Virus record (IMG/VR): IMGVR_UViG_3300036964_000424
Coordinates: 1-64,000 of that record
DNA length: 64,000 nt
Reading direction: 5' to 3' (one strand)
Origin: a virus
Taxonomy: Duplodnaviria; Caudoviricetes
Of the stretch, positions 18,019 through 62,948 are shown piece by piece. A program made the translations under genes and the position numbers. The number at the start of each line of letters is the position of its first letter. The first letter of the stretch is position 1. The notes under the pieces are model-generated. The model saw only the letters and a list, made by a program, of their open reading frames with translations. It was not told the origin of the DNA and ran no database searches.

Positions 18019-18628
18019 TTATAAAAATATAATTTTATGTATGATTCGGGATATATTGGGAGGAAAAGGGTGGGTGTACTATGATAAAATTAAATAAATG
18101 CCTAAAAGCTTATTTGATAAAATTGATTAAGCCTTCTAAAGATGAAATTAAATTGCAATATTCAGAACTTGCAATTAGAATTATTGAACGAGGTTATATA
18201 ACAGAATTCGAATTGCAAATGCTGAAAAATATAGGATTTAAAGAAATGTAATAAAAAACATTTAAAATGCAAATAATGTGGTATACTTTTATATAACAAA
18301 AAGGATTGAATAGAGTGGGAAAAGGGATATTTATTGGATTATTTATTTTGTTTATGAGCAATTCTAGGGGCGATTATGAATTAATACATATTTTGATATT
18401 TATATTTATAGGTTTTATGTTTAAAATTATTTTTACAAAGGAGGTTTGATCAGAAATTATGAATAAAAAATATGAATTAACAGAAGAAACATTGTATTGG
18501 GAAGGGGCAATTTAAATGACTTCCCTGAAAAAATGGATAAATTTAATTCGAATGAAAATTTAACAGATTAGGATATGATTGTTTTTATAGTATGTTTTTT
18601 TGCTATGATAATTGCTATATTTGAGAGC

Positions 18629-18657
18629 TTGACAAATAAAAAATAGTATGTTATACT
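18629..18657 (+). promoter_or_regulatory. Consensus sigma70/sigmaA promoter (others at 20813-20841, 26408-26436, 27297-27325, 29412-29440, 36049-36077, 37183-37211, 41658-41686, 42794-42822)
   Basis: TTGACA-17 bp-TATACT with extended TG; the others share TTG(A/C)-type -35 and 17-bp spacing. Confidence 0.8.
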
Positions 18658-18691
18658 TGTATTAAATAAAAAAAAAGAAAAGGAAAACAAA

Positions 18692-19786
18692 ATGATTACA
18701 TTAAGCAAAAAAGAATTAGTATCAGCATTATCGAAATGTAGTAAAGTTTTACCGAAAAAACCGAGTTTAGAAGTTCTAACAGGAGTTAATATTGTATGCA
18801 AAGATGGTGTATGCAAATTTGTTGCAACGGATTTAGAAAACGAGATTACCATAAAATTAAACAGTGCCACATTTGATAATGATATTAGTTTTGTTCTTAT
18901 GGATATTGCATCATTGTCTAAAGCAATCAAGTTATTCGGAGAAGTGATCACATTCGAGCAAGTTGATAATAGCATTGTTGTAAGTTCTGGTTCAAAATCA
19001 ATTAAGGTAAAATGCCTTGATAGTAAAGAATTCCCTGAATATAATTTGCTTGGAGAATTTAAAGTTAATTCACAATTCAAAGTAAATGGTAAAGAATTAG
19101 GTAACCTCTGTAATAAAGTTGCTTATGCTGTAAGTAAAGAATTGGAAAGACCTGTTTTAACTACTGTATGCTTTAGAAAAAATTATGTTACTGCGACAAA
19201 CGGATTTATAATTTCTAAAGTTGATAATAATTTTTTTGAATGCGAAAAAGATTTATTATTTTCTGATAGAGCTGTAAAACTTTTTGAATTAATTGGTAAT
19301 GGAGATTTGTATATTGGAGTTTATAACTCGTCAGATTTAAGATATTGCTTTGAGGATGAAAATATATCCTTAAAGGGTATGCTTCTTTCAGGAAGCTTCC
19401 CTGATGTTGAATGTGTAATCCCTAAAGATATTTATAATTTTACAAAGTATACAATTAACAGATTGGAATTTATCGATGCTTTAGATTCTATGATCAAAAT
19501 TAAATGTCGCTGCGTGAAGTTATCTGGTAATAAAATTATTGCTCAGAAATTAGAAAGCGTAAAAGATATGGAATTACCTGATTATGAAATTGAAATTGCT
19601 AATTTGAATGTGGAACAGGCATTTGCATTCAACCCGAAATTTGTATATGATGCTCTAAAAAATCAATTTACTTCTGATGAAGTTTTGTTTGAAGTAAATA
19701 AACCTAACCAACCATTTGTGATTACAGCAATTGGTGATTCGGAGAAAGACGGCTTATTTGTTTGTATGCCTATGTACTTAGGATAA
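18692..19786 (+). CDS. dnaN: DNA polymerase III beta sliding clamp
   Basis: 364 aa; ATDLE, RPVLT, ATNG, GSFPD, FNPKFV, C-terminal MPM. Confidence 0.9.
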   Translation: MITLSKKELVSALSKCSKVLPKKPSLEVLTGVNIVCKDGVCKFVATDLENEITIKLNSATFDNDISFVLMDIASLSKAIKLFGEVITFEQVDNSIVVSSGSKSIKVKCLDSKEFPEYNLLGEFKVNSQFKVNGKELGNLCNKVAYAVSKELERPVLTTVCFRKNYVTATNGFIISKVDNNFFECEKDLLFSDRAVKLFELIGNGDLYIGVYNSSDLRYCFEDENISLKGMLLSGSFPDVECVIPKDIYNFTKYTINRLEFIDALDSMIKIKCRCVKLSGNKIIAQKLESVKDMELPDYEIEIANLNVEQAFAFNPKFVYDALKNQFTSDEVLFEVNKPNQPFVITAIGDSEKDGLFVCMPMYLG

Positions 19787-19800
19787 AATTTTTATAATCG

Positions 19801-19839
19801 TACTGGTATAATAAATGTAAAAAGTTTATTATACCAGTA
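19801..19839 (+). terminator. Hairpin after dnaN
   Basis: TACTGGTATAATAAA...TTTATTATACCAGTA inverted repeat; weak U-tract. Confidence 0.5.
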
Positions 19840-19978
19840 TAGCAGAAAAGAGTAGCATGATAACAAAATTAGACATAAGAGATATAAATTTACAAAAAAT
19901 AGAACTGATAGATAAACTATTATCATCATTCCCCATATTGAGTTAGAAATTCAATGGGGAAAGGAGAATCTTGAAGAC

Positions 19979-20194
19979 TTGGAAAATGAACTTGAAGAAT
20001 ATTTGCTGAATCTAAGCGAAAACAAATCAAATGATTTTGAAATCGCGACAACAATTTCTATGCTTTTGGCAAGAATAGATGAATCGAAAAATAAGATATC
20101 TAATCTTACTGGCGAATTGTCTCGGCTGAATGCAGAGTGGGAAACACGGCGCGAAACACTTCATAATTTGATAGAAGAATTGAAAAAATCTTAA
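19979..20194 (+). CDS. Small coiled-coil protein
   Basis: ORF with heptad pattern. Confidence 0.5.
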   Translation: MENELEEYLLNLSENKSNDFEIATTISMLLARIDESKNKISNLTGELSRLNAEWETRRETLHNLIEELKKS

Positions 20195-20214
20195 TACTAA
20201 AAAAAGGGGAAGAA

Positions 20215-22004: not shown

Positions 22005-22006
22005 TT

Positions 22007-23174: not shown

Positions 23175-25367
23175 ATGCGATATTTAGTTTTATTACGAGG
23201 TAGTGCAGGATGTGGCAAAACAACGTGGTTAGAAAAAACCGGATTAAAGCCTTATAGTATTAGTGCCGATGATATTCGTACTATGCTAAGATCGCCTTCA
23301 ACTAATATAGAAGGTAAACTTGAAATTAGCCAACTTAGCAATAAAAAAGTATGGAATATGATTTTTGAGACATTAGAAGAAAGAATGTCAAGAGGAGAAT
23401 TAACTATTATTGATGCAACTCACTCAACCCTTGATATGATATCTAAATACCGAAATTTATGCCAAGAATATCGATATCGATGCGTTGTTGTTGAGTTTCC
23501 TAACGATGTAGAAACTATACTTAAACAAAACGCAAGCAGAGAAGAAATTAAGCGCGTGCCAGAAGATAGTATTAGAAATATGTGCAGTCGTATTGAAACA
23601 CAACCTACTCCTAATTGGTGCACTAAAACTACTCCCGATAAATTCTTAGAAGAATATGGAAGTATAAAAGTATTTGATTTCAATAATTATGAAGAGATTG
23701 TACATTTTGGAGACATTCATGGATGTTATGAGCCACTGAAAGAATATTTTGAAAAACATCCTTTTAGTGAAAATAAATTCTATATTTTTACAGGTGATTA
23801 TACCGACAGAGGTATTCAAAATAAAGAAGTAATTGAATTCCTATTTACGCTTATCGATAAAAAGAATGTACTATTTTTGGAAGGGAATCATGAAATACAC
23901 ACAAAACTTTATGCTAACGATAAAGAAGATCAAATAAAATCTTCAGAATTTAAAAAGTTTACTTTATCTCAAATAGAATCTATAGACAAAAAGCAGTTAC
24001 GAATTTTTTATGGAAAATTAGCACAATTAGCTTTGTATGAATATGGTAATGAAATATTTTTTGTTTGTCATGGCGGATGCCCTCTATTACCTACATATTT
24101 TACTTCTACAGAAGAGTTGGTTAAAGGCGTTGGCAAGTATGAAGATTATTTAAAAGTGGAAGAGTCATGGAATAAATGGGCATATAAACAAAATACAGTC
24201 TATTACCAAATTCACGCTCATCGTAATACAGAAAATAATGATACAGAAAATGGCAGATGCTATAACTTGTGTGATAGAGTTGAGTTCGGAGGGAATTTGA
24301 GAATATTAACTTTATCAAAAGATGGCGATAATGTTAAGAAAAACATTGAATTAATTAAAAATAATGTTTATTACATTAATAATAATGTAGCAGAAGAAAA
24401 AATAGTAATAGATGGCGACAATTTGATAAGTAAGATGATGAATAGTAAATTAGTGCAAGTAAAGTCTTTAAAAAATAATGTAATATCCTTGAACTTTACA
24501 AGAGACGCTTTTCATAAAAAAGAATGGAACGACTTGACAATTCAAGCACGAGGGCTATTTATTAACAAAAACACAAAAGAAGTAGTTGCAAGAAGTTATG
24601 ATAAATTCTTTGCCGTAGATGAAAACGAATCTATGAAAACCAATGTTTTGCGTAGGAAAATGGTTTTTCCTGCTAAGGCATATATTAAATATAATGGCTA
24701 TTTAGGAATCACAGGATATAATTCAGAAGCAGATGAATTATTTATTGCCACAAAAACTACAGATACTGGAGATATGCGAGAAAAGTTTAAATCTATATTG
24801 GAGAATACTTTAGATATTAACAAATTATCTACTTTATGCAAAGAAAATAATATGAGTATTATATTCGAAGTAATTGACCCTGTAAATGACCCTCATATTA
24901 TTGAATATGATAAAGAACAAGTTATTTTGTTGGATTGCATATATAGAGATTTAAATTTTTCTAAAAGTGATAAATCAGAAGAAATTGCCAAAGAACTTGG
25001 CGTAAAATATAAAGAATTAGCATATACATTTAATGATTATCTTGAGTTTGAAAATTTTATAGCAAATGTAAAAAAGGAAAATCTTAATATGAATCTAAGA
25101 TCCATAGAGGGTTTTGTTATTGAAGATAGCAATGGCTATATGATGAAATTGAAAAATAAGTACTATACATTCTGGAAATTTATGAGGGGGTTTAAAGATC
25201 AAATAGCATTGGGGCGCGTGGTAAATTTGCATATGCTGAATAAACCGCTTGATAATAAAGTATATGCTTTCATGAAAAACAAGGGTAGAGAATATTGCGC
25301 AGAACATTCTATTATTGAAATAAGAAAAGATTTCGAGAAAGAGTATGGCAATGATTATTTTCTATAA
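23175..25367 (+). CDS. Pnkp-like RNA repair enzyme: P-loop kinase + metallophosphoesterase + RNA ligase
   Basis: GSAGCGKT and IDAT kinase; GDIHG, GDYTDRG, GNHE phosphatase; KYNGYLG, FEVI, EGFVI, KLK ligase motifs. Confidence 0.88.
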   Translation: MRYLVLLRGSAGCGKTTWLEKTGLKPYSISADDIRTMLRSPSTNIEGKLEISQLSNKKVWNMIFETLEERMSRGELTIIDATHSTLDMISKYRNLCQEYRYRCVVVEFPNDVETILKQNASREEIKRVPEDSIRNMCSRIETQPTPNWCTKTTPDKFLEEYGSIKVFDFNNYEEIVHFGDIHGCYEPLKEYFEKHPFSENKFYIFTGDYTDRGIQNKEVIEFLFTLIDKKNVLFLEGNHEIHTKLYANDKEDQIKSSEFKKFTLSQIESIDKKQLRIFYGKLAQLALYEYGNEIFFVCHGGCPLLPTYFTSTEELVKGVGKYEDYLKVEESWNKWAYKQNTVYYQIHAHRNTENNDTENGRCYNLCDRVEFGGNLRILTLSKDGDNVKKNIELIKNNVYYINNNVAEEKIVIDGDNLISKMMNSKLVQVKSLKNNVISLNFTRDAFHKKEWNDLTIQARGLFINKNTKEVVARSYDKFFAVDENESMKTNVLRRKMVFPAKAYIKYNGYLGITGYNSEADELFIATKTTDTGDMREKFKSILENTLDINKLSTLCKENNMSIIFEVIDPVNDPHIIEYDKEQVILLDCIYRDLNFSKSDKSEEIAKELGVKYKELAYTFNDYLEFENFIANVKKENLNMNLRSIEGFVIEDSNGYMMKLKNKYYTFWKFMRGFKDQIALGRVVNLHMLNKPLDNKVYAFMKNKGREYCAEHSIIEIRKDFEKEYGNDYFL

Positions 25368-25448
25368 TAAACTTACATAAAAGTATGTTTTTATTATTAT
25401 ATTCAGATAGGTATTTATTTATACCTTATCCGTCAAATTTTCAATAAT

Positions 25449-25717: not shown

Positions 25718-26398
25718 TTGTGGTCTTATTATGGTACTAAAAAGAAATTGGCAAAATATTATCCGGAACCACAATTTGATACTATTATAGAACCTTTTGC
25801 TGGTGCAGCACAATATTCTTTATTTGGCAATAATTGGCAGAAACAAGTATATTTAGTTGATAAATATGATATTATTGTTAAAGTGTGGCAATATCTTATC
25901 AATGCTACGAAAGAAGACATTTTGGGATTGCCAGATTTAGATGTAGGACAAAATGTAGATGATTTTACTACTTTATCTAATGAAGAAAAATGGCTAATTG
26001 GATTTTGTATTAATCCCGCATCTGCTTGCCCAAAGAAAACTTCGACTAAAAGAGGAAGATGGAATGCCAATAAAATAAATATTGCTGAAAATATTTATAA
26101 AATAAAACATTGGAAAGTAAAATGTGATGAATTTAAAAATATTAAGAACATAAGTGCTACGTGGTTTATTGATCCTCCTTATAAATACGGCGGTATTTAT
26201 TATAGAATGAATAATAAAAATATAGATTATAATGATTTGGCGGAATGGTGTAAATCGAGAAACGGTCAAATTATTGTGTGCGAAAATACAAAAGCGGATT
26301 GGTTGGACTTTAAGCCATTGGCGGAATTAAAAGGTCAATTACATACAACAATGGAAGCTATTTGGTATAAATCTTACATAAAAACTCAACTTTATTAG
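25718..26398 (+). CDS. DNA adenine methyltransferase (Dam/D12-like, short form)
   Basis: YYGTK, EPFAG, FIDPPY; TTG start after GGAGG. Confidence 0.85.
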   Translation: MWSYYGTKKKLAKYYPEPQFDTIIEPFAGAAQYSLFGNNWQKQVYLVDKYDIIVKVWQYLINATKEDILGLPDLDVGQNVDDFTTLSNEEKWLIGFCINPASACPKKTSTKRGRWNANKINIAENIYKIKHWKVKCDEFKNIKNISATWFIDPPYKYGGIYYRMNNKNIDYNDLAEWCKSRNGQIIVCENTKADWLDFKPLAELKGQLHTTMEAIWYKSYIKTQLY

Positions 26399-29382: not shown

Positions 29383-29461
29383 TTGTTATACGAAAATGTT
29401 TAAATTGCCTATTGACAAAATTTTAGCATTGTGGTATTATTATGTTAAGGAGAATAACAAT

Positions 29462-30364
29462 ATGCTAAAAGAATACGAAGTTTATTTAGAAACGCTTAAG
29501 ATCGATAAAAGTAAGGAAACTTATCGATCGTATAAACATATTTTAGAAAATTTCTTCAATTCGATGAAGATTGAAAGCATTGAAGATATTAAAAATATGA
29601 AAAGTGAAGATATTCAAAATTATATAAACCATATGATAATTAAAAAGGAGGGTGAAGATCAGAATAGTATAAATAAGGCAAAAGCCACAGCCAATGCACA
29701 TTTAAGAGTAATAAAAGCTTATATGAATTGGCTGGTTAGTAAGAATTATATTCTTGAATCGCCGGCAAATAAAGTCGCAAGGTTTAAAGAGGCGCAAACC
29801 ATAGCGACTGTTTTTACAAAGGAGGAAAGGGATAAAGCAATCCTAAATACTAAAAATAAAGCAGAATTACAATTAACAATTGCAATACTTTTTTATACAG
29901 GAATTCGCTGTGAAGAGGCGGTGAATATAAAATTATCTGATATTAAAGATGGCGTACTCCTTGTGCACGGAAAAGGAAACAAGGAACGCCAAATACCATT
30001 GAATCCATTTCTACAAGAACTTATTAAAAAATGTTTATTGCAACGCAAGCATAAGAGCGAATATTTACTTGCGTCAGCTAGAGGAGGGCACAAAATTAGT
30101 ACAACTTCTTTATACAAAAGAGTAAAAACAGCTTGCGAAATTGCTGGTATTGATCAAGACAAGATTGAAAAATTAAGCCCGCATAGTGTTCGCAGATCGT
30201 TAGCTTGCTTTTTACTTATGGATGGTGCTTCATCATCCGTTATACAAAATGTGCTAGGGCATGCTAATTATAAAACAACGGAAAGATATATACGCCCAGC
30301 AATTGCCTTAGCCGCAAGGAAAACACTATTAGAACAGGAACCGCCTTCATGGTGGGGGAAATAA
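29462..30364 (+). CDS. XerC/D-like tyrosine recombinase
   Basis: TGIRCEE, HGKGNKER, PHSVRRS, LGHAN..TTERY; ATG 29462 lies after promoter 29412-29440 and AAGGAG. Confidence 0.92.
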   Translation: MLKEYEVYLETLKIDKSKETYRSYKHILENFFNSMKIESIEDIKNMKSEDIQNYINHMIIKKEGEDQNSINKAKATANAHLRVIKAYMNWLVSKNYILESPANKVARFKEAQTIATVFTKEERDKAILNTKNKAELQLTIAILFYTGIRCEEAVNIKLSDIKDGVLLVHGKGNKERQIPLNPFLQELIKKCLLQRKHKSEYLLASARGGHKISTTSLYKRVKTACEIAGIDQDKIEKLSPHSVRRSLACFLLMDGASSSVIQNVLGHANYKTTERYIRPAIALAARKTLLEQEPPSWWGK

Positions 30365-30401: not shown

Positions 30402-30878
30402 ATGAGGTTAAATAATAGCTTAGTCTCTGCTACAAGGGGAAATTCTGATAAATCGGGGAGATGGGAAAGTTGGGATATCCTGCCCCCAGTTATGGTTTTA
30501 GACCCAATGAAAATTATTTATCAGCCGGACAGAGGCGTAACAATTGTTATTTGGGGGGATGGAAGCAAAACAGTTGTGAAATGTCATGAAGATGAATTTT
30601 CAAAAGAATTTGGCTTTGCCATGGCGGTAGTAAAAAAGCTTTATGGCAGAGGAGAATTTCTTAAGATGATTGAAAATGCATCAGTGCAGAATGCTAATAA
30701 AAAAAAAGAAAGTATAAAGAATAAACCTGCGCATATGATAGAATATGAATCTGATGCGGATGAATACGCTGGCAAAAAAGAGCTTCTTCGGGAAATATCA
30801 GATATTTTCCTAGAGATAGCTGATTCCTTAGATGATTTGTATAATATAATGAGTAAACTTGAAGAAATTAGCAAATGA
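30402..30878 (+). CDS. Conserved phage hypothetical protein
   Basis: TIVIWGDGSKTVVKC...FSKEFGFAMA. Confidence 0.7.
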   Translation: MRLNNSLVSATRGNSDKSGRWESWDILPPVMVLDPMKIIYQPDRGVTIVIWGDGSKTVVKCHEDEFSKEFGFAMAVVKKLYGRGEFLKMIENASVQNANKKKESIKNKPAHMIEYESDADEYAGKKELLREISDIFLEIADSLDDLYNIMSKLEEISK

Positions 30879-31032
30879 TTTTTTTATACTGGATCCCTGT
30901 GCCAACTAGTCGTATATTTATTAATTTATTATTAAGCGATGAATCTTCCACTGCAGGGAAGCTACGAATAAATGGCAATAATAAGTAGCATAATATAAGA
31001 TTAAAGTTTAAAAATCAAATAGGAGTAATTAT

Positions 31033-31662
31033 ATGGCAGTTGTAAATATGAGTGTGCATCGTGGTTTATCAGAGTTGAAACTATATGCTAACAAAATTGC
31101 AAGTTTAAATTCTGAGCCATTTGTTGTTGCCAACAAACAATCAAACAAAACTATTGGTGGTAGATCGATTGAAGATGTAAATAACTTAATTAAAGGTAAT
31201 TTTGATAGTATGGTTGCATTGATTGAAAATAGAAAACGAATTAAAGATGCTATTGTAAAATCAAACGCTGCAACCAATGTTACAATTGCTGGGAAAATAA
31301 TGACAGTTGCTGAAGCTATTGAGCGTAAAGCATCTATAGAATTTGAGAGGAATTTTCTTAGAATTTTACAGGATCAATTTTCACAGCAAAATAATATTGT
31401 TGAACAACAAAATCTGCAATTACCGACTAAACTTGAAACATTCTTGCAATCAACACTTGGAGAAAAAAGAGACGTTGCTACGGTAAAGGATTTGACAAAA
31501 ACATTTGAAGACAATAATAAATATGTTTTGATTGATCCTAATCATATTCAAGATTATATTCAAGCCCTCGATAAAAGTATTAATGAGTTTGCGTCACAAG
31601 TAGATTATACTTTATCTGAAAGTAATGCAACAACATTTTTTGATGTAGAATTAGTTGATTAA
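31033..31662 (+). CDS. Coiled-coil protein (resembles DIP1984-like phage proteins)
   Basis: GLSELK...I, IVKSNA.T.V.I.G..MTVAEAI, IDP, VDYTLSESNA.T. Confidence 0.7.
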   Translation: MAVVNMSVHRGLSELKLYANKIASLNSEPFVVANKQSNKTIGGRSIEDVNNLIKGNFDSMVALIENRKRIKDAIVKSNAATNVTIAGKIMTVAEAIERKASIEFERNFLRILQDQFSQQNNIVEQQNLQLPTKLETFLQSTLGEKRDVATVKDLTKTFEDNNKYVLIDPNHIQDYIQALDKSINEFASQVDYTLSESNATTFFDVELVD

Positions 31663-31667
31663 ATAGA

Positions 31668-31969
31668 ATTGTGCTGGTTATGCGAAAACCAAAAATATTA
31701 TTGTCGTCTGGCATAAACGTTATTATGCCACACCATTGATTATGGACAAATCCATTGCAGAATTGTAAATTTTGTTACTCTATTCTTGCACAGAGTTTGT
31801 TTCAAAAATCAAAGGTAAAAGATTAAAGGACAAAACACAAACATCATATTGTCAAGATTGAAAATTGAAAGATATAAAGAACAAGAATCTTTTAAATCTT
31901 TGATAAATGGTTTAGGTGATACAATAATGTAACCGTTGGTTATCCACAAAGCTGTATAATCAGCACAAT
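31668..31969 (+). ncRNA. Putative ~300-nt structured RNA with heptamer array
   Basis: 16-bp closing stem 31668-31683/31954-31969 with two G-U pairs; internal hairpins; NNNAAAG-type 7-nt periodicity at ~31800-31890. Confidence 0.65.
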
Positions 31970-31974
31970 AATAT

Positions 31975-32045
31975 TGCGGGGTTGAGTAGTGGTTACTCCC
32001 AAGAGTCATAATCTTGTTACATGCGTTCAAATCGCATCCCCGCTA
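31975..32045 (+). tRNA. tRNA with CAU anticodon (Met, initiator-like acceptor stem)
   Basis: TGCGGGG/CCCCGCT acceptor with 1-72 mismatch; CAAGA-GTCATAA-TCTTG; ATGCG-TTCAAAT-CGCAT. Confidence 0.75.
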
Positions 32046-32048
32046 CAT

Positions 32049-32129
32049 GGAGAAGCTGGACATGAGTGAGTCCACCTGACTGTAAATCAGGCGTTAATAC
32101 TGTAAAGGCGCACATACCTTTCTTCTCCA
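32049..32129 (+). tRNA. tRNA-Tyr (GUA)
   Basis: GGAGAAG/CTTCTCC acceptor; CCTGA-CTGTAAA-TCAGG; long variable region; atypical T loop. Confidence 0.7.
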
Positions 32130-32217
32130 CTATTATGTGATATATGTTTTTGTAGCAATTTGTTACGTGGTTTTGTGGTTATAATTTTCTTTATATCGTT
32201 GTAGACAATAATTATAT

Positions 32218-32290
32218 GCTTCTGTACCCAACTGGTTAAGGGAACTCTCTTATAAGGAGCGATATGTTGATTCGAATTCAACCAGAAGCA
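32218..32290 (+). tRNA. tRNA-Ile (UAU)
   Basis: GCTTCTG/CAGAAGC acceptor; CCC/GGG D stem; CTCT-CTTATAA-GGAG; GTTGA-TTCGAAT-TCAAC. Confidence 0.72.
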
Positions 32291-32343
32291 CTTAGGTGAT
32301 GGGGAATATAAGATTTTTTATTTTTTATTTTAGGAGGTAAAGA

Positions 32344-32712
32344 ATGTTTCCATTTTCTGATTTTTTTTGGTTTGATGATAGTGCTTATCGGTTTAATCGC
32401 CCAATGCTTGAACGACAAGGATGGTATAGTAAAGAAAAAGATGGCAAGTTATTATTGCTATTAAATGTATTGGGTGTAAATGAAGATGATTTGAATATTG
32501 AAGTAAAACCTGTTGAAAATAACAAAGAAGTTATTTGTATCAATGGCAAAACTAAGGATGAATTATTTGATAGGGAATTTAGTGTCAATATGAATTTCAT
32601 GATTAGTAAGCCAATGGAACAGGTAAAGACAAGCGCAAAAAATGGACTCCTTATTTTAGAAATAGAGTTCAAAGAGCCTGTAAAATCATCTGTAAAGATT
32701 ATTAAGGGATAA
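32344..32712 (+). CDS. Small heat-shock protein (Hsp20/alpha-crystallin)
   Basis: LGVNEDDLNIEV...I.G...SAKNGLLILEI; AGGAGG RBS. Confidence 0.75.
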   Translation: MFPFSDFFWFDDSAYRFNRPMLERQGWYSKEKDGKLLLLLNVLGVNEDDLNIEVKPVENNKEVICINGKTKDELFDREFSVNMNFMISKPMEQVKTSAKNGLLILEIEFKEPVKSSVKIIKG

Positions 32713-32757: not shown

Positions 32758-33405
32758 GTGGAAAAGAAAATTGTTTGTTTTTCTGATATACACGGGCAAA
32801 TTGATAATAATCTAACTGATTGGTTTAATAGCCATCCTGGGGATATACTTATCTTTGCTGGAGATCAGAAAGGTAGTAGGCTCGAGGATGGCAGTAAATT
32901 CGCATCTTGGATTACTAACTTGCCATATAAATATAAAGTTATAGTTTTTGGAAATCATGATGATAATTACAAAAATGTTCAAGACTACTGTAAAAAATAT
33001 AAAAACATAATATTTTTATATGATGAATTAATTAATTTGTATGGAATAAATATTTACGGGTCACCGTATTCGGTAGCTTTTGGGAATTGGGTATTTCAAA
33101 AATCGGATAAAGATTTGATAAGATTATATGATAGTATTCCTGATAGTACAAACATACTGATTACGCATACGCCAGCATATGGAATTTTAGATAAAACTAT
33201 ATTCGGATATAATGAAGGGAGCCGCAGTTTATTAGATAGAATAGATAAACTTCCTAATCTTAAATATCATATTAGCGGGCATATCCATGAAGGCGGTGGA
33301 AAAATAATAGATGAAGAAAAAAAACGGGTTTATTTGAATGTAAGCTTATTAGACGAGGCGTATCGTTTAGTAAGAAATCCATATGCGTTTATATATAAGA
33401 AATAG
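32758..33405 (+). CDS. Metallophosphoesterase
   Basis: SDIHG, AGD, GNHD, THTP, GHIHE. Confidence 0.9.
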   Translation: MEKKIVCFSDIHGQIDNNLTDWFNSHPGDILIFAGDQKGSRLEDGSKFASWITNLPYKYKVIVFGNHDDNYKNVQDYCKKYKNIIFLYDELINLYGINIYGSPYSVAFGNWVFQKSDKDLIRLYDSIPDSTNILITHTPAYGILDKTIFGYNEGSRSLLDRIDKLPNLKYHISGHIHEGGGKIIDEEKKRVYLNVSLLDEAYRLVRNPYAFIYKK

Positions 33406-33413: not shown

Positions 33414-33602
33414 ATGGAACAAGAAGAAGAATATAAAGTAAGTGATGTTGCAGATTTATATTGGGAGAATGTTATGATGATCAAAGAAATTAAAAAATAT
33501 AAGACCGCTTTATCCGAAATAGCTTATCTTGAAAACGAATGGGATGATCCTTTAGATTTTATAAAAGATTTAAAAAATATTGCTAAAAAGGCGTTACAAT
33601 AA
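33414..33602 (+). CDS. Small hypothetical protein
   Basis: GAGG RBS; stop codon lies inside the palindromic site at 33599. Confidence 0.55.
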   Translation: MEQEEEYKVSDVADLYWENVMMIKEIKKYKTALSEIAYLENEWDDPLDFIKDLKNIAKKALQ

Positions 33603-33635
33603 AATGTGCATTTTATCATGTTTAAAGGAGGGTTT

Positions 33636-34376
33636 TTGATACAATTATTACAAGGTGATTGTTTAGAACTAATGAAAGAAGTTCCTGATAAATCTATTGA
33701 TATGATTTTATGTGATTTACCTTATGGTACGACTGCTTGTAAGTGGGATAGCATAATTCCTTTTAAACCATTGTGGGAACAGTACGAGAGAGTTATAAAG
33801 GACAATGGAGCAATCGTATTATTCGGTTCTGAACCATTTAGTAGTGCATTAAGAATGAGTAATATAAAGAGTTATAAATATGATTGGATATGGAAAAAGA
33901 ATAAACCCCAGGGATTTTTAAATGCTAAGAAGATGCCCTTGAAAGACTATGAAAACATTTCCGTATTTGCAAAATCTACTACCACATATAATCCTCAGGG
34001 TTTAATTAAAATTGATAAGGTAATTAAAAATGGTGGCACTAAAAATCCTACAAGCAATAAGGCAAATGGAGATAAAACATCTGCTAACAATGCCATTAAA
34101 AATGAGTTTTATAAACAAGAGAATACTAATTATCCTACACAAGTAATTGAATTTAAAAATAGTGGGAGCAAGCAGGTTCACCCAACCCAAAAACCCGTAG
34201 CACTATTAGAATACCTAATAAAAACATACACTAACGAAGGCGAAACAGTTTTAGATAATTGCATGGGGTCTGGCTCGACTGGAGTAGCTTGTGTCAATCT
34301 GAATAGAAATTTTATTGGTATGGAATTAGACGAAGGTTATTTTAATATAGCCAAGAAACGAATAGAAAAAACGTGA
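33636..34376 (+). CDS. DNA methyltransferase, beta class (N6A/N4C)
   Basis: CDLPYG, HPTQKP, LDNCMGSGST; TTG start after AAAGGAGG. Confidence 0.92.
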   Translation: MIQLLQGDCLELMKEVPDKSIDMILCDLPYGTTACKWDSIIPFKPLWEQYERVIKDNGAIVLFGSEPFSSALRMSNIKSYKYDWIWKKNKPQGFLNAKKMPLKDYENISVFAKSTTTYNPQGLIKIDKVIKNGGTKNPTSNKANGDKTSANNAIKNEFYKQENTNYPTQVIEFKNSGSKQVHPTQKPVALLEYLIKTYTNEGETVLDNCMGSGSTGVACVNLNRNFIGMELDEGYFNIAKKRIEKT

Positions 34377-34425
34377 TAAAAGTAGGATTTTATGATCTAA
34401 AAATAAGCATAAAAGGAAGGTAAAT

Positions 34426-35196
34426 TTGTTAGAATTAAATAAAATTTATTGCATGGATAATATAGAAGGATTAAAGAAATTAGATGATAATAGTATTGAT
34501 TTAACTGTTACTTCGCCACCTTATGATGATTTAAGAAATTATAAAGGCTATACTTTTGATTTTGAAAATTTAGCAAAAGAATTGTATAGGGTCACTAAAG
34601 TAGGAGGAGTAGTAGTGTGGGTGGTTGGTGATGCCACAAAAAACGGAAGTGAATCTGGGACAAGTTTTAAGCAGGCCTTATATTTTACAGAAATTGGCTT
34701 CAATTTGCACGATACAATGATATGGAATAAAGGAGGATTTACTGCTGTTGGTGCACTATCAACAAGATACGCACCAGTTTTTGAATATATGTTTATTTTG
34801 ACAAAAGGTAAAATAAAAACATTCAATCCTATAAAAGACAGAATAACTATAAATGGCGGGAAAAAAGTAAGTGGAACAATACGGCAAAAAGATGGATCAA
34901 CAAAGCCTATGAGTAAAGTTATGACAATCAATAAATACAGTCAGAGATATAATATTTGGAACATAAATCCTCAAAGGCAGAGGGGAAAATATACGCATCC
35001 CGCCGTATTTCCAGAACAATTGGCAGAAGATCATATTCTATCTTGGTCAAATGTGGGCGATATTGTTTTAGATCCATTCATGGGATCTGGTACAACTGCG
35101 AAAATGGCAAGATTAAATAATAGAAACTATATTGGTTTTGAGATATCACCAGAATATTGTGATATCGCAGAAAAAAGATTAGAACAAATACGATAA
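34426..35196 (+). CDS. DNA methyltransferase, beta class (SPPY, probably N4C)
   Basis: TSPPY, HPAVFP, LDPFMGSGTT. Confidence 0.92.
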   Translation: MLELNKIYCMDNIEGLKKLDDNSIDLTVTSPPYDDLRNYKGYTFDFENLAKELYRVTKVGGVVVWVVGDATKNGSESGTSFKQALYFTEIGFNLHDTMIWNKGGFTAVGALSTRYAPVFEYMFILTKGKIKTFNPIKDRITINGGKKVSGTIRQKDGSTKPMSKVMTINKYSQRYNIWNINPQRQRGKYTHPAVFPEQLAEDHILSWSNVGDIVLDPFMGSGTTAKMARLNNRNYIGFEISPEYCDIAEKRLEQIR

Positions 35197-35242
35197 AATG
35201 TGGATTTTATGATCTAAAAATAAGCATAAAAGGAAGGTAAAT

Positions 35243-36019
35243 TTGTTAGAATTAAATAAAATTTATTGTATGGATAATGTGGAAGGAATGAATTTGTTAG
35301 ATGAAAATAGCGTTGATTTAACAGTTACTAGTCCGCCATATGATAATCTGAGAAGCTATAAAGGGTTTCAATGGAATTTTGAGAATGTTGCAAAACAATT
35401 ATATAGGATTACAAAAATAGGTGGTGTTGTAGTTTGGGTAGTTGGGGATTCTGTTATAAATGGATCAGAATCCGGAACGTCTTTCAAACAAGCATTATAT
35501 TTCAAAGAGATTGGTTTTAATCTTCATGATACAATGATATATGAAAAGTGTGGAAATCTTCCAGCAAAAAATAGATATATACAATCTTTTGAATATATGT
35601 TTATATTCTCAAAAGGAAAACCAAAAACGGCCAACATAATTAAAGATAGAAAAAATAACTGGGGAGGTAGTAAAACATTTGGGAAATCTTCATTTAGAAA
35701 TAAAGATGGCACGCTGACAATAGGGAGGCAAAGAGAAATTGCAGAATATGGTAGCAGAACAAATATTTGGAAATATGCCAATGGGTATGGGTTTGGGCAA
35801 AAAGATAAAATAGCTTACCAACATCCTGCCACCTTCCCCGAACAACTAGCAATAGACCATATATTGACATGGTCGAATGAAGGAGACATTGTTCTTGATC
35901 CGTTTCTTGGTAGCGGTACAACTGCAAAAGAAGCTAAACTATTAGGGAGGAATTATATAGGATTTGAAGTTTCTCAAGAATATTGTGATATTGCAAATAA
36001 AAGAATTGAAAACTTATAA
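35243..36019 (+). CDS. DNA methyltransferase, beta class (SPPY), paralog of 34426
   Basis: TSPPY, HPATFP, LDPFLGSGTT; middle segment differs from paralog. Confidence 0.92.
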   Translation: MLELNKIYCMDNVEGMNLLDENSVDLTVTSPPYDNLRSYKGFQWNFENVAKQLYRITKIGGVVVWVVGDSVINGSESGTSFKQALYFKEIGFNLHDTMIYEKCGNLPAKNRYIQSFEYMFIFSKGKPKTANIIKDRKNNWGGSKTFGKSSFRNKDGTLTIGRQREIAEYGSRTNIWKYANGYGFGQKDKIAYQHPATFPEQLAIDHILTWSNEGDIVLDPFLGSGTTAKEAKLLGRNYIGFEVSQEYCDIANKRIENL

Positions 36020-36149
36020 TCAAACGAAGAATTTATTTAATTATATTCTTGACAAATTGTCATAAATATGGTAATATTATTTAATAAAAGGTTGATTAAA
36101 GAAATAAAGAAATATAAGAATGCTTTATCTGATAAAAGGATGAATAAAT

Positions 36150-36347
36150 ATGTATAACAATAGAAAATTTTTAAACAAGAACTGGACAGAATTTAATGGG
36201 TCAACTATTATAGATGCGCGTGATTATACAAATGATAATTGTTCAACCTTTAAAGAATATTGTTGTTATGTGCCTGTATATATAGATACAAGAGCATATA
36301 CAATAATAGAACTGTTTGAGAGATTTTATATAAAAAAGGATCAATAA
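36150..36347 (+). CDS. Small hypothetical protein
   Basis: ORF whose stop lies inside the site at 36344. Confidence 0.4.
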   Translation: MYNNRKFLNKNWTEFNGSTIIDARDYTNDNCSTFKEYCCYVPVYIDTRAYTIIELFERFYIKKDQ

Positions 36348-53239: not shown

Positions 53240-54060
53240 AAGATTTCATTACGGTTATATTTTCACGAGACAGGGCATCTCAATGTGATTTGCTTTTAAA
53301 GTCTATAAATGCATGCACTAAAGAATACATGAATATTCATGTTATTTATACTTGTGATACCGATAGGCATTGGAGATCATACGAGAAACTTAAAAATAGG
53401 CACGGGGAAGCCAATTTTCACATTGAAACAACCTTTAAATATGATTTAATTTCCCTTATTCGATATTATAAATATGTTCTCTTTATGGTTGATGACAATA
53501 TTTGTGTATCTGATTTTAGCATAGAAAAGATTATAGATTTATTAGAAAAAAACAAGACTGCACTTGGGTTTAGTTTGCGGCTAGGAGCTAATTGCACAGA
53601 ATGTTATACGCTGTCCTGCAAGCAAGAAATGCCGCCTTCTACCAAAATAGCTGATAATGTATTTATGTATAGCTGGTTTGGTGCGAATGCAGATTTCGGG
53701 TATCCGCTGGAATTATCAAGTTCAATTTATAAGGTATCGGATATTATACCGATATTAATGAACGAAAATTTCTTGAATCCGAATGAATTAGAATGGAAAA
53801 TGCAATCTTATAATTATTGGTTTTCTACAAAAAAGCCGCACCTTTTGTTATACCAAACCAGTGCCTGCTTCTGCAATCCAATTAATAAAATAAATATTAA
53901 TAATAATCGAAGCGGGAATAATCCGGAATATTCAATAGAATCACTCTTGACAAAATACGAAAAAGGTGTTATCATTAAATATGATTTCAAAGGGTTTATT
54001 CCCAATGGATGTCATCAAGAAGTAGATATTGAATTTGGGCTTGAGAAAGGTGAAGAATGA
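53236..54060 (+). CDS. Putative glycosyltransferase
   Basis: IFSRDRA.Q...LL.S, FMVDD, FSLRLG, DFGYPL, PN.LE. Confidence 0.7.
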   Translation: MKDFITVIFSRDRASQCDLLLKSINACTKEYMNIHVIYTCDTDRHWRSYEKLKNRHGEANFHIETTFKYDLISLIRYYKYVLFMVDDNICVSDFSIEKIIDLLEKNKTALGFSLRLGANCTECYTLSCKQEMPPSTKIADNVFMYSWFGANADFGYPLELSSSIYKVSDIIPILMNENFLNPNELEWKMQSYNYWFSTKKPHLLLYQTSACFCNPINKININNNRSGNNPEYSIESLLTKYEKGVIIKYDFKGFIPNGCHQEVDIEFGLEKGEE

Positions 54061-54884
54061 GTCAGAAAAATAAATCTACAAAGTTTGTAAATATTGCTGA
54101 TCCACTTGTAAGTATTATTACTCCGACGTATAATCGTAGAAATTTACTCAAAAGAACTTTGGATTCTTTAGTAAATCAATCTTATAAAAATATAGAAATT
54201 TTAGTGATAAATGATTGCGGAGTAAACGTAGAAGATGTTGTGAACGAATTCAAAGATAATAGAATTAGATATTTTCAAAATGATAAAAATGTCGGATTGG
54301 CCGCGACGAGGAATGTCGGATTGGAAAACATGCGTGGGGATTATTTCTGTTTATGCGACGATGATGATATATATATGAAATATGCTATTGAAATACGCAT
54401 GTACCTGATGAAAAAATTAAATGCAGAAGCATCTTATACAAGATCATTATTAGATCATTGGGAAAAAAGGGGGGACGGGTATGTTAGTATTGGCAAAACC
54501 TTATACTGGAGCAATCCTTATTTCTCGAAGGATTTAATCCTTGTGCAAAATTTATGCCCTTGCTCGAACTCCACCGTCAGTCGAAAGGCATGGGAAAGGG
54601 CTGGCTGTTATCAGTTCGACAAAAATCTTACCACGACAGAAGATCACGACATGTGGATAGCAATCAGCAGAAAGACAGATTTTCATGATTTAGAAATAGT
54701 AGATACTGAATGTAGCCGGCGTAATGACAAAACGCAGATGACAAATAATTTAGATTTTTCTAAAAATTGGATTAAAGTATTTAAAAAATGGAGGCATACA
54801 GCAGAAAATTTAGAATGGGTTACAGAATCTCAAAATAGTATTCTAAGAAGTGTAGGGATCAATCCCGAAGATTATGGCTTGTAA
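54057..54884 (+). CDS. Glycosyltransferase family 2
   Basis: VSIITPTYNR, VINDC, G.AATRN.GL, CDDDD, EDHD. Confidence 0.9.
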   Translation: MSQKNKSTKFVNIADPLVSIITPTYNRRNLLKRTLDSLVNQSYKNIEILVINDCGVNVEDVVNEFKDNRIRYFQNDKNVGLAATRNVGLENMRGDYFCLCDDDDIYMKYAIEIRMYLMKKLNAEASYTRSLLDHWEKRGDGYVSIGKTLYWSNPYFSKDLILVQNLCPCSNSTVSRKAWERAGCYQFDKNLTTTEDHDMWIAISRKTDFHDLEIVDTECSRRNDKTQMTNNLDFSKNWIKVFKKWRHTAENLEWVTESQNSILRSVGINPEDYGL

Positions 54885-54930: not shown

Positions 54931-55701
54931 TTGCAAATTAATGATAACATTATTATAAAACAAGGTGATTGCTTGGAATTAATGAAAGAAATTCCAGATA
55001 AATCTGTTGATATGATTTTATGTGATTTGCCTTATGAGACGACTGCTTGCAAGTGGGATACAATAATACCTTTTGAACCATTATGGGAACAATATAACAG
55101 AATTATCAAAGACAATGGTGCTATTGTGTTATTTGGTTCGGAGCCTTTTTCGACAATGTTAAGATATAGCAATTTAAAGATGTATAAATACGATTGGATT
55201 TGGGAAAAATCTATCGGAGCCAATCCCTTATTATGTAAAAAACAACCTATGAGATATCACGAAAATATATCCGTTTTTTATAAAAAACAATGTGTATATA
55301 ATCCTCAAATGACAATAGGTAAGATGAGAGATAAAAAACCGAAAACGTGGGGAGATAAGACAGACGAAATATACGGAGGGGCTTTATCCCGCTTTAATGG
55401 AAAAAGTAATATAAATAATTTGTATTATCCGAGAAGTTATCAGTATTTTTCAAACGCTAATCAAAAAGATAGATTACACCCAACCCAAAAGCCAGTAGAG
55501 CTATGCGAATACTTAATCAAAACGTACACAAACGAAGGCGAAACAGTTTTAGATAATTGTGCAGGATCATTTTCGACAGCGATTGCATGCATAAATACTG
55601 GAAGGAGGTTTATTGGATATGAATTAGATGAAAAGTACTTTGAGATTGGTAAAAATAGAATATTAGATCATCTTACTAAAAAGGAAGAAATGTTATTTTA
55701 A
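54931..55701 (+). CDS. DNA methyltransferase, beta class, paralog of 33636
   Basis: CDLPY, HPTQKP, LDNCAGS. Confidence 0.92.
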   Translation: MQINDNIIIKQGDCLELMKEIPDKSVDMILCDLPYETTACKWDTIIPFEPLWEQYNRIIKDNGAIVLFGSEPFSTMLRYSNLKMYKYDWIWEKSIGANPLLCKKQPMRYHENISVFYKKQCVYNPQMTIGKMRDKKPKTWGDKTDEIYGGALSRFNGKSNINNLYYPRSYQYFSNANQKDRLHPTQKPVELCEYLIKTYTNEGETVLDNCAGSFSTAIACINTGRRFIGYELDEKYFEIGKNRILDHLTKKEEMLF

Positions 55702-55741
55702 AATCTGGATTTTATTATAAAAATTAGAAAGGAATATAATT

Positions 55742-61061: not shown

Positions 61062-61077
61062 CTTCTAAAAAGTGGTA

Positions 61078-61112
61078 AAAAAATAGGGTACAATAAATGT
61101 ACCCTATTTTTT
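61078..61112. terminator. Bidirectional intrinsic terminator between convergent arms
   Basis: AAAAAATAGGGTACA-ATAAA-TGTACCCTATTTTTT. Confidence 0.85.
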
Positions 61113-61193
61113 AATACAGAATAGATTTATGATGCGAAACACGTTTAAATATCGTCAAAATCTCTTATGCGGAATACGTTCACGATGATTGAT

Positions 61194-61301
61194 TCAAATT
61201 TGCTCCGCCAAAATTGCCAGCACTTCTTCGCGTAAATTTTCAGGCACGTCCTCAATCGTCTTGATGCCCTTTTTGATTAACGCCGCGTAAATTTTAGCCA
61301 T
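61194..61301 (-). CDS. CD1375-like small protein (35 aa, absent from ORF track)
   Basis: MAKIYAALIKKGIKTIEDVPENLREEVLAILAEQI with GGAGG RBS. Confidence 0.75.
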   Translation of the reverse strand: MAKIYAALIKKGIKTIEDVPENLREEVLAILAEQI

Positions 61302-61926
61302 TAGACACCTCCAGTCGTAGTTGCATCTGCGCCTCTGCTATGCGCCGTTCTGCGATGGCGAAGTAGGTCGGGTCGATTTCCACGCCGATGAAGTTGCGAC
61401 CAGTTTGAACGCAAGCCACGCCGGTTGTGCCGCTGCCCATGAAGGGGTCAAGGATGGTGTCGCCTTCGTTTGTATAATTTTCTATTGCCCACCTCATTAG
61501 TGATAACGGCTTTTGAGTTGGATGTACTTTCTTTTCTTCCGAATGAAACTCAACCCTACTTTTTCTAAATGCTTTTGTGGATTTATCAAACGAAGTCCAT
61601 GCAAGCTCAGCGTCCGCCCCAGAAAATTTTTGCATCTTATCCCAAATCAACCAGCATCTTGAGTTGTGCAAATAGTCAACAAAGTAATTTCCACCCCAAA
61701 TAATCTGATTGTTGCTTACCCTGAATATCTCGCTGAAATATAGTTTTTCTGGTATTGCTAAATCCCATCTATTATCGGTGGTAAATTCAGTCCTACCGCT
61801 TTTGTCTGCCTTGCGGACATCTTCGCCAATCCCATACGGCGGGTCAGTAATCACCGCGTCCACGCTCTTATCAGGCATGGATCGCATAACCTCCAAACAA
61901 TCGCCTAAGTGAAGCTCAACGGTCAT
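61294..61926 (-). CDS. DNA methyltransferase, beta class (DPPY)
   Basis: GDCL, TDPPYG, HPTQKP, LDPFMGSGTT; start at MTVEL after GGAAGG. Confidence 0.9.
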   Translation of the reverse strand: MTVELHLGDCLEVMRSMPDKSVDAVITDPPYGIGEDVRKADKSGRTEFTTDNRWDLAIPEKLYFSEIFRVSNNQIIWGGNYFVDYLHNSRCWLIWDKMQKFSGADAELAWTSFDKSTKAFRKSRVEFHSEEKKVHPTQKPLSLMRWAIENYTNEGDTILDPFMGSGTTGVACVQTGRNFIGVEIDPTYFAIAERRIAEAQMQLRLEVSNG

Positions 61927-62052
61927 AGCGCCGCCTTCCTGTACGCCTTCGCTCGGCAATTTCCAACCCTCACCCACCGCCATTCTAGTACGCCTTCCCT
62001 ATTCTCTAGCACTGTTCCATCGTAAAGTTTGATTGTATACATGAGATTACTC

Positions 62053-62886
62053 CTATCCGATTATAGAGAAAGCGGGGCGAACGCCACCGGCGTAGGAAGC
62101 GGAGTAGGAGTGCGCAAAACCGTAGGTGTAGACAATGGCGAAATAGGCGGCAGATACAACATCTCTCAGCCAGAAAGTCTGACAATTAGAAATCATGTGC
62201 GGGTCGTGTACAAACAACGGGTACTGAGATTTGTCAACGGTATGGTTTGCAACATCCGTAGCACCATTCCCCATAGGCGCAAAGACCTTGCCGCCGTACA
62301 CATTCTGTTCCGTCATAAGCTCAACCTTGCTGTCGTACCAAGAATTGCCCGAAGGATAACCGTCAGTAACGGCGTTGCAAAGATACTGTCTGTGAGACAG
62401 AATGTGTGCAGACCCGAAAGCGTTGTTAATCGCCGTCTTTGCGTCAGCAAGACCCTGTGTGTACATCTTCGAGCCAACATAACCGCCCGTAGTAATGGCC
62501 GTATCGTTCATTACATGGGTGTAAAGGTTCGAGTCCGGAACGATTACGACATGGTGAGTATTGCAAGCCGCATCACCTGTGGTGAGGTAATAGTCAAACG
62601 CCGCAATTCTCCAAACAACGTCATTTATAGTCCAGTAATCACCCACGTACATATCATCAAAAGTTCCAGCAGCAATAGCAGAATATTGAGCAGCAGAGAC
62701 AGACGTCCCTAATGAAACACCACGATAGACCGAATTGTGCGCGCCAGCATTATTGACAAGCGGAAATACTGCAGGTGTACCTGTCAAATTGGCATACGCG
62801 ATCTTCTTACTATCCGTTCCGTCATGATCATGTCCAGTAGAGGTATTGAATCCCATCTGCTCGTCTCTTAATTTTGTTTGACCCAT
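62053..62886 (-). CDS. Tail-associated protein with CLec-like C-terminus (DGR-target-like)
   Basis: GHDHDG fibre motif; VGDYW, WRIA.FDYY, FWLRD...GGVRPAF. Confidence 0.7.
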   Translation of the reverse strand: MGQTKLRDEQMGFNTSTGHDHDGTDSKKIAYANLTGTPAVFPLVNNAGAHNSVYRGVSLGTSVSAAQYSAIAAGTFDDMYVGDYWTINDVVWRIAAFDYYLTTGDAACNTHHVVIVPDSNLYTHVMNDTAITTGGYVGSKMYTQGLADAKTAINNAFGSAHILSHRQYLCNAVTDGYPSGNSWYDSKVELMTEQNVYGGKVFAPMGNGATDVANHTVDKSQYPLFVHDPHMISNCQTFWLRDVVSAAYFAIVYTYGFAHSYSASYAGGVRPAFSIIG

Positions 62887-62948
62887 TTAATCCCCTTTCA
62901 ATTAAAATAAAATTCTAATTTTATCATCATTATTTTCTTTTTTTCTTG

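Follow-up and report, generated by a model that had tools for sequence, protein, structure and literature searches.

The locus

The window analysed here covers the first 64 kb of a virus record of 100,289 bp (IMGVR_UViG_3300036964_000424; G+C 33%), and the element in question is an 18-bp palindrome, ATAAAA-N6-TTTTAT, which recurs at gene ends and often beside DNA methyltransferase genes (Table 1). A first-pass annotation had taken these palindromes for sites at which a tyrosine recombinase captures or shuffles single-gene cassettes. Genes for replication and nucleotide metabolism, a glycan cluster and genes for numerous small proteins occupy the plus strand between 10 and 61 kb, and siphovirus virion genes lie on the minus strand from 61 to 100 kb, wrapping into 1-7 kb. 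Judged from its gene content, the phage is a distant, uncultured member of the SPbeta supergroup, because it has a single-chain RNA polymerase of the YonO type in two open reading frames (ORFs) (PF05183, E 1e-19; tblastn against SPbeta yonO, E 4e-18), a tyrosine recombinase homologous to SPbeta YomM, a terminase with 34% identity to YonF, YomG/H-like tail genes, and a portal protein closest (31%) to that of Enterocloster phage PMBT24 among cultured phages. A further marker of the supergroup is an HU-like gene (2724-3077) adjoining the polymerase. An affiliation with crAss-like phages, prompted by the polymerase matches, was replaced by this placement on the evidence of YonO, YomM, the terminase, the tail genes and the portal.

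Table 1. ATAAAA-N6-TTTTAT sites of the window, with its methyltransferase and tyrosine recombinase genes
Feature	Position	Strand	Remarks
One-mismatch site	1637-1654	-	Overlaps stop of YomM-like recombinase gene
Tyrosine recombinase 1, SPbeta YomM homologue, candidate enzyme	1651-2700	-	Late operon, beside HU-like gene
Perfect site, centre ATATAA	18021-18038	+	Between ORF 17491-18018 and small ORF 18081-18251
Perfect site, centre GTATGT	25377-25394	+	10 nt past RNA ligase/kinase gene 23175-25367
Perfect site, centre TTTCAA	25680-25697	+	20 nt before GTG start of D12-class methyltransferase
D12-class DNA methyltransferase	25718-26398	+	Followed by one-mismatch site 26378-26395 and TTGACA-N17-TAAAAT promoter
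Tyrosine recombinase 2, XerC/XerD-like, candidate enzyme	29396-30364	+	3 kb upstream of methyltransferase array; in all near relatives
Perfect site, centre TGTGCA	33599-33616	+	Overlaps TAA of small ORF 33414-33602; left edge of variable methyltransferase slot
N6_N4 methyltransferase cassette 1, TTG start	33636-34376	+	In relatives, D12 methyltransferase, DruA-like gene or nothing instead
Perfect site, centre GTAGGA	34376-34393	+	In contig L120 joined directly to flank of ORF 33414
N6_N4 methyltransferase cassette 2, TTG start	34426-35196	+	63% identical to cassette 3
Perfect site, centre TGTGGA	35193-35210	+	Overlaps cassette 2 stop
N6_N4 methyltransferase cassette 3, TTG start	35243-36019	+	Two-mismatch site 36019-36036 follows, then copy 1 of sigma-A-type promoter (36041-36090)
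Perfect site, centre TGAAGA	36344-36361	+	Overlaps stop of small ORF 36150-36347
N6_N4 methyltransferase cassette 4, TTG start	36386-37162	+	Promoter copy 2 (37175-37224; 96% identity with copy 1) follows
Perfect site, centre CGTGTA	42762-42779	+	At stop of small ORF 42586-42762
Perfect site, centre ACTGAA	54893-54910	+	Glycosyltransferase 54057-54884 before it, methyltransferase 54931-55701 after it
One-mismatch site	55698-55715	+	Follows methyltransferase 54931-55701
Seventh methyltransferase	61983-61294	-	Follows gene 62886-62053 in two-gene unit behind site 62907
Perfect site, centre TTAGAA on gene strand	62907-62924	-	20 nt upstream of ATG of gene 62886-62053

Seven of the ten perfect sites adjoin methyltransferase genes. 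The first-pass annotation had placed the methyltransferases at 25718, 33636, 34426, 35243 and 54931 each between two sites, as is indeed found, and had missed two more, 36386-37162 after site 36344 and 61294-61983 on the minus strand. On the plus strand one enzyme is of the D12 class and the other five belong to two subgroups of the N6_N4 family; all six genes (25718, 33636, 34426, 35243, 36386 and 54931) start with TTG or GTG and none with ATG.

Number, shape and placement of the sites

All ten perfect sites listed by the first-pass annotation were recovered at the positions it gave. It had estimated less than one such match by chance; 100 dinucleotide shuffles of the window gave 0.16 on average and 2 at most. 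The whole record holds 12. When the spacer was varied from 0 to 14 over the whole record, 6 bp gave these 12 matches and every other spacing 0-2, so that the constant 6-bp centre claimed earlier is the sole enriched spacing. Among the sites that had been called near-perfect, those at 1637 (which overlaps the recombinase stop codon as described), 26378 and 55698 have one mismatch; 36019 (ATCAAA-CGAAGA-ATTTAT) has two, and the label was generous there. Further one-mismatch matches at 9400, 34095 and 59851 are at chance level (5.4 expected). In five phage contigs pooled, 60 perfect and 49 one-mismatch sites were counted, against 0.7 and 18.8 in the shuffles. An alignment of 49 oriented sites from the five phages extends the dyad weakly, to A-ATAAAA-T...A-TTTTAT-T, and the conserved length is just 6-8 bp per arm.

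The sites are strongly biased to gene junctions, as had been noted for the window. Junctions make up 12.8% of positions in the phage record and hold 10 of its 12 sites by automatic gene calls (P=6e-8), or 11 of 12 once an over-extended ORF at 25673 is corrected; 39% of generic A/T-only words of the form W6-N6-W6, taken as a control, fall at junctions. Over the five contigs the corresponding count is 54 of 60 (9.5 expected). A typical site follows a stop codon, which often lies inside the left arm (e.g., at 33599, 35193 and 36344, as the first-pass annotation had observed), and precedes the ribosome-binding site of the next gene, 19-43 nt from its start. The gene before site 25377 (23175-25367) encodes a 730-aa fusion of kinase, phosphatase and RNA ligase of the RNA-repair type (phrog_8238, E 2e-187).

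The spacer centres differ at every position within a genome, yet they are kept at corresponding positions between genomes. Their last base, read in gene orientation, is A in nine of the ten window sites, in line with the earlier description, and this preference weakens to 29 of 49 when the five phages are pooled. Sites 34376 and 35193 are duplicates, since the 57-nt leader after each is the same; the remaining sites have unrelated flanks. Because the arm sequence is strictly conserved, the centre free and the spacing fixed, these features point to a two-fold symmetric protein that would recognise the site as duplex DNA.

Junctions in near-identical relatives

Relatives were found by a metagenome search with the phosphoesterase 32758-33405 and by an exact look-up of the 62-aa ORF 33414-33602. 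The near-identical ones are metagenome contigs, many of them apparently from anaerobic digesters. Left of site 33599 many contigs are 95-100% identical to the window, and right of it they differ, always from the site onward; homology with ten contigs stops exactly at 33616, the final base of the site. Several arrangements occur at this place. In the first (V1; seven contigs from seven samples), a site with the centre TGAAGA leads to the leader of a Thy1-like gene, and all four methyltransferases are absent. The second (V2), that of the window and four contigs, runs from the TGTGCA site through an N6_N4 methyltransferase to the GTAGGA site and the next methyltransferase. In the third (V3, contig L110), the TGTGCA site is followed by an unrelated methyltransferase of the D12 class (Pfam E 2e-13), the GTAGGA site and then the Thy1 leader. 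In the fourth (V4, L120), a GTAGGA site precedes a decayed copy of the second methyltransferase, and in the fifth (V5, L104), the TGTGCA site precedes a DruA-like gene (PF14236, E 4e-8). This last gene (L104:4044-4316; Ga0116189_1016069) has the DruA domain of Druantia and is cut by the contig end.

The GTAGGA 18-mer of V3 stands in an island of 21 bp of identity with unrelated sequence on both sides, and the centre TGAAGA has three different combinations of flanks (at 36344 in the window, in the 77%-identical relative L004, and in V1). Every centre has been seen with differing left flanks and with differing right flanks, and therefore exchange points must lie in both arms. Ordinary homologous recombination would need more than the exact sequence shared at the joints, which amounts to 6-8-bp arms and no more than 21 bp, and so would assembly chimeras at the usual k-mer sizes.

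Other kinds of change are found in the same region. L120 also has ordinary deletions, one between paralogous methyltransferases and the other between two 50-bp promoter copies. Between these copies (36041-36090 and 37175-37224, 96% identical), both TTGACA-N17-TAATAT promoters, lies a unit consisting of methyltransferase 36386 with the small ORF 36150 and site 36344 ahead of it. In L004 and L120 the unit is missing and just one promoter copy is present, which suggests that the unit was deleted or inserted through recombination between the repeats. The stretch around tRNA-Met (31975-32046) and tRNA-Ile (32218-32291), from 30995 to 32590, is variable as well: some near-identical relatives have a 350-bp segment in place of 30996-32292, others lack 32066-32589, and these breakpoints are not at motif sites.

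At other sites the comparison gives a varied picture. Relatives L126-L129 and L133 keep both 54893 and 55698 and swap only the middle (55223-55506) of the methyltransferase between them, presumably its target-recognition region. Site 42762 lies 14 bp ahead of the promoter (TTGACA-N17-TACACT) that serves the DNA polymerase gene; together with the small ORF 42586-42762 it is missing from the 77%-identical relative L003. Ten relatives whose upstream genes differ have site 18021 and its 43-nt leader unchanged. Various genes upstream of this site end in one 26-bp coding tail (peptide ...ETGWDD), and the 56-aa ORF downstream of it (18081-18251), whose surroundings are highly mosaic, recurs unchanged in at least 31 collection blocks. 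Exact-protein look-ups for a second locus (at 26455, at 41778 and with the polymerase) returned the window's own arrangement only.

Distribution of the motif

Among 80 viral loci with homologues of the 34426 methyltransferase, 75 have no site and five have 3-10 sites each. A methyltransferase-specific regulatory element was thus rejected, since so few of the homologous loci carry the motif and these five have many copies beside other genes too. The motif is abundant in certain phages, three of them known as uncultured contigs. G001 (IMGVR_UViG_3300020036_005209; 43.6 kb) has 13 sites (reverse-word control, 1) and G002 (73 kb) has 19 (control, 0); L006, a 22.7-kb piece with a polymerase 52% identical to the present one, has 13, mostly ahead of small genes other than methyltransferases. 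SPbeta itself has 13 perfect sites and about 27 one-mismatch copies, mostly ending in TTTTAA; its original annotation labels a few of the copies merely as stem-loops. Bacillus phage FADO has 30 sites (control, 0). The Bacillus rugosus genome has 31 (control, 5), about 20 of them in a stretch of about 110 kb of SPbeta-like prophage on one contig; two on a neighbouring contig have SPbeta centres, and the nine elsewhere are in line with the control. A host-wide signal was thereby rejected for Bacillus, the motif being no commoner than chance in the rest of that genome. Just 1-3 sites each were counted in phages 949, SEP9, nattely and MT835481, all with YomM-like recombinases. The motif is therefore a feature of certain phage lineages and not of methyltransferases or hosts.

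Variants of the motif occur in two other phages. Cultured phage PMBT24 (L009/L010, OQ326496.2) has no ATAAAA-N6-TTTTAT and instead ten copies of TTAAAA-N5-TTTTAA at gene starts, in early and structural modules, which looks like a co-varied relative of the motif. PMBT24 is virulent, and it has a YonO-like polymerase, an HU-like protein and a XerD-like gene. In G001, a symmetric variant, ACAAAA-N6-TTTTGT, sits in the spacer of consensus sigma-A promoters; the late-module promoters at 23186, 28454, 32306 and 38808 read TTGACAAAA-N6-TTTTGT-GG-TATACT or similar.

The gene content that G002 shares with this phage is almost only methyltransferases and nucleotide enzymes; the proteins linking the two are methyltransferases, ribonucleotide reductase, a nucleotidase and an unannotated 158-aa protein (30402-30878). 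No DNA-binding candidate common to all motif-bearing contigs emerged from the comparison of shared proteins. The gene for the 158-aa protein lies directly downstream of the XerD-like recombinase gene and is kept with it in all near relatives; it has two weak homologues in G002 and no Pfam or PHROG match.

Candidate recombinases

Both recombinases of the window carry a Phage_integrase domain. The YomM-like protein has the residues R, HxxR, W and Y, and the XerC/XerD-like protein has R, HxxR, H and Y. The latter matches XerC-like (E 2e-19) and XerD (E 3e-17) structures best by sequence, ahead of IntI4 (2e-9), and it has no detectable homologue in SPbeta, G001 or G002. The YomM-like recombinase is common to this phage, SPbeta and G001. 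Both are candidates only, since the XerD-like protein lacks homologues in those three phages, the YomM family occurs in site-poor phages, and no integrase domain was found in the available part of G002. The proposal of the first-pass annotation that one or other of them drives the system was not borne out, as nothing ties 1651-2700 or 29396-30364 to the sites.

Interpretation of the sites

The reading that we prefer, with belief and doubt about evenly balanced, is that the sites are protein-recognised recombination joints for cassettes of accessory and anti-defence genes. The sites would be docking points on double-stranded DNA for a two-fold symmetric, phage-encoded protein, and single accessory genes would be inserted, deleted or exchanged there between related phages that meet in one cell. 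In the window the exchanged genes would mostly be DNA methyltransferases, together with other anti-defence genes. Cleavage and strand exchange might take place at the edges of the 6-bp centre in the fashion of tyrosine recombinases, whose core layout of inverted arms around a 6-bp centre the sites do resemble, as had been pointed out; the exchange points in both arms match where such an enzyme would cut. The centre could act as an address, making exchange at cognate sites of two genomes more likely and deletion between neighbouring sites less so. A bolder form of the proposal, which is offered tentatively and which we consider doubtful, is that phages of the SPbeta supergroup may carry a natural, addressable cassette-exchange system, in which a dedicated recombinase would cut at the edges of the centre and use it as a barcode to pair cognate positions of co-infecting genomes; single anti-defence genes, such as methyltransferases and a DruA-like gene, would so be swapped precisely and the genome order left intact.

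Several observations weigh against the proposal. A conserved arm of 6-8 bp is short for a Xer- or Cre-type arm. V1, V3 and V4 require recombination between unlike centres, and since they join non-cognate centres any address is leaky at best; V3, V4 and V5 are known from one metagenome contig each. The YomM-like family is common in phages with almost no sites, G002 with its 19 sites lacks a Phage_integrase domain in the 73 kb available (49% of its genome), and four genomes of other genera with YonO-bearing prophages have the motif at or below the control level. Against close relatives of this phage, about 35 clusters of breakpoints were found and only 3-4 of them are at sites, where about 0.5 would be expected by position; others are in the tRNA region (30995/32293, 32065/32590) and at 55223-55506, 37216-37224 and 56417/60549. 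At 18021, homology runs through 26 bp of coding sequence upstream of the site, and because the ten relatives share these 26 bp the joint is not at this site. Two further pairs of contigs were compared: the breakpoint between G001 and G005 is 35 bp from a site, and G003 and G002 show no difference. Finally, selection for viable recombinants at gene boundaries could contribute to the pattern. The first-pass annotation had proposed that gene gain and loss in relatives be examined for breakpoints at the sites; this is what is seen for the methyltransferase array in near-identical relatives, and it does not hold for most of the mosaic breakpoints or for 18021. Altogether the first reading is partly supported, in that the sites do coincide with cassette boundaries, and neither a named recombinase nor the likeness to integrons is supported.

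Operators of a dimeric phage regulator or nucleoid-type protein (an HU-like protein or a repressor, perhaps serving as a roadblock or insulator) are the main rival, named in the first-pass annotation too, and a serious though somewhat unlikely one; recombination would then be a passive by-product of the many copies of a short sequence, as in the cassettes of T4-type phages discussed below. The dyad symmetry, the strict arms and the free centre would suit an operator, and the centres of the half-sites are about one helical turn apart. Ribosome-binding sites or start codons follow the sites directly, at a distance of 1-43 nt, the ACAAAA-N6-TTTTGT variant is placed like an operator in the late sigma-A promoters of G001, and the TTAAAA-N5-TTTTAA copies at gene starts in PMBT24 are twice just upstream of a -35 box. 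There is a precedent in SPbeta, where dispersed copies of a 15-bp operator, SPBRE, in the promoters of yorE, aimR, yonT and others are bound by MrpR (YopR), a repressor with the fold of a recombinase (PMC10516654). However, SPBRE, recovered from the promoters of the ten published targets, is situated in promoter spacers with a sequence of roughly ACAAA-AAATATGTATAT and differs from ATAAAA-N6-TTTTAT, so that the motif is not the MrpR operator itself, and most sites do not adjoin a recognisable promoter. Passive recombination also meets the difficulty that 6-bp arms with unlike centres offer too little homology, yet four types of junction at one locus fall inside the 18-mer.

It is quite improbable that the motif is a signal for gene expression, whether a promoter for the YonO-like polymerase or a phage sigma factor, a terminator, a processing hairpin or a translational operator. 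Such a signal would fit a motif that always has a gene after it, with the Shine-Dalgarno sequence often no more than 20 nt away, in a phage that encodes a YonO-type polymerase; in G001 several start codons overlap the end of the motif (TTTTATG), which would suit transcripts with short leaders, and a purine precedes the right arm in nine of the ten window sites. The directional bias fades over the 49 oriented sites, whose position table has no -35/-10 context, and the motif is found between divergent and convergent genes too. Simple sequence scans called no site a promoter or a terminator. The sites fold at -0.8 to -3.3 kcal/mol, half of them no better than shuffles, and their stems are A-T only, unlike the G+C-rich stem and U tract of an intrinsic terminator; what is conserved is sequence and not pairing. 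A search of the window against Rfam matched two tRNAs and nothing else, and no RNA family at the sites. Compensatory changes were considered for distinguishing a hairpin from a protein-binding site, and the sole clear case, ACAAAA-N6-TTTTGT in five G001 copies, is non-discriminating because it is part of TTGACA promoters. A promoter for YonO is disfavoured in particular, since no motif is within 700 bp of the start site published for YonO in SPbeta (PMC5467207; by conversion, about position 60,451 of the record) and since the motif is lacking in the four YonO-bearing prophages mentioned above. The polymerase of the present phage is split on the minus strand (window 3974-7033) into ORFs 7033-5384, which has the PF05183 match, and 5152-3974, together spanning positions 56-537 and 551-844 of phrog_8308; no intron family was detected in the window by an Rfam gathering search.

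That the motif has no dedicated function and is AT-rich intergenic sequence from tandem gene duplication, its junctions being due to boundary selection or assembly chimeras, is hardly credible: 34376 and 35193 are indeed duplicates with one leader and V3-V5 are single-contig variants, but the same 12 fixed bases and spacing occur in G002, which shares almost no genes with this phage, and in Bacillus phages, the reverse-word controls give 0-1, the flanks of the other sites are unrelated, V1 comes from seven samples, and the exact sequence shared at joints is no longer than 21 bp.

Relation to known systems

Recombination joints of the kind proposed here would have their closest likeness in the dif modules of Acinetobacter plasmids, which are flanked by pdif (XerC/XerD) sites (Mindlin et al., 2019; PMC6449649). 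In both cases short sites of recombinase type, with a centre of 6 bp, enclose single adaptive genes that occur in different backbones, and many of the sites cluster in accessory regions. The slot between the TGTGCA and GTAGGA sites behaves as a place for discrete modules, being filled by an N6_N4 or a D12 methyltransferase, with the DruA-like gene after TGTGCA in L104. However, pdif is 28 bp long (11-6-11), resembles the chromosomal dif of the host and is served by the host's XerC/XerD, whereas only 6-8 bp per arm are fixed here and the carrier is a phage; in the Bacillus rugosus chromosome the motif is at chance outside the prophage.

Cassettes bounded by promoter-early stem-loop (PeSL) elements are known from T4-type phages (Arbiol et al., 2010; PMC2839356). 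There, too, a short repeat lies between non-essential genes of plastic regions, and insertions, deletions or replacements between close relatives end at it; such boundary behaviour was found at the methyltransferase slot and not at 18021. PeSL is a functional sigma-70 promoter with a terminator stem-loop and recombines by homology, whereas the present sites have no promoter hexamers, fold weakly and provide arms of just 6 bp around unlike centres.

The first-pass annotation had called the system integron-like, though without attC. An array of single accessory genes alternating with sites, and the presence of a tyrosine recombinase gene, do recall integrons. Integron attC sites are, however, imperfect inverted repeats of 57-141 bp with R''/L''/L'/R' boxes, and the 18-bp sites with perfect 6-bp arms have no such structure. 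Unlike integrons, the array has no attI and no common promoter Pc; each gene has its own Shine-Dalgarno sequence, there are internal TTGACA promoters at 36049 and 37183, and the XerD-like protein fits XerC/XerD structures better than IntI4.

In engineered cassette exchange with heterospecific lox or FRT sites, a known enzyme acts on 13-bp arms that are identical around unlike centres. The replacement of the gene between two unlike centres with both centres kept, as between the window and L110, resembles this exchange. It differs in that variants joining non-cognate centres exist and that the recombinase here is a candidate only.

Two repressor systems invite comparison as well. SPBRE resembles the present motif as a set of dispersed repeated sites in an SPbeta-type genome, and it is a precedent for a tyrosine-recombinase fold used only for binding. 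Mycobacteriophage stoperators are repressor-bound, asymmetric 13-bp sites in one orientation with respect to transcription, whereas the present site is two-fold symmetric. No description of the motif was found in the literature by full-text searches under several spellings, or under SPbeta with inverted repeats.

Significance

Should the sites prove to be genuine recombination joints, phages would possess a counterpart of integrons and pdif modules, and large temperate and virulent phages of Bacillota would have a means of renewing their anti-restriction and anti-defence genes gene by gene. This would explain why seven methyltransferases lie in site-bounded slots and why sister phages from digesters differ exactly there. 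As SPbeta and FADO carry the motif and grow on Bacillus subtilis, the hypothesis is open to direct genetics, and a short pair of sites with a selectable centre is a possible tool for cassette exchange. If the sites are operators instead, they would constitute an undescribed, genome-wide layer of regulation in a model phage family.

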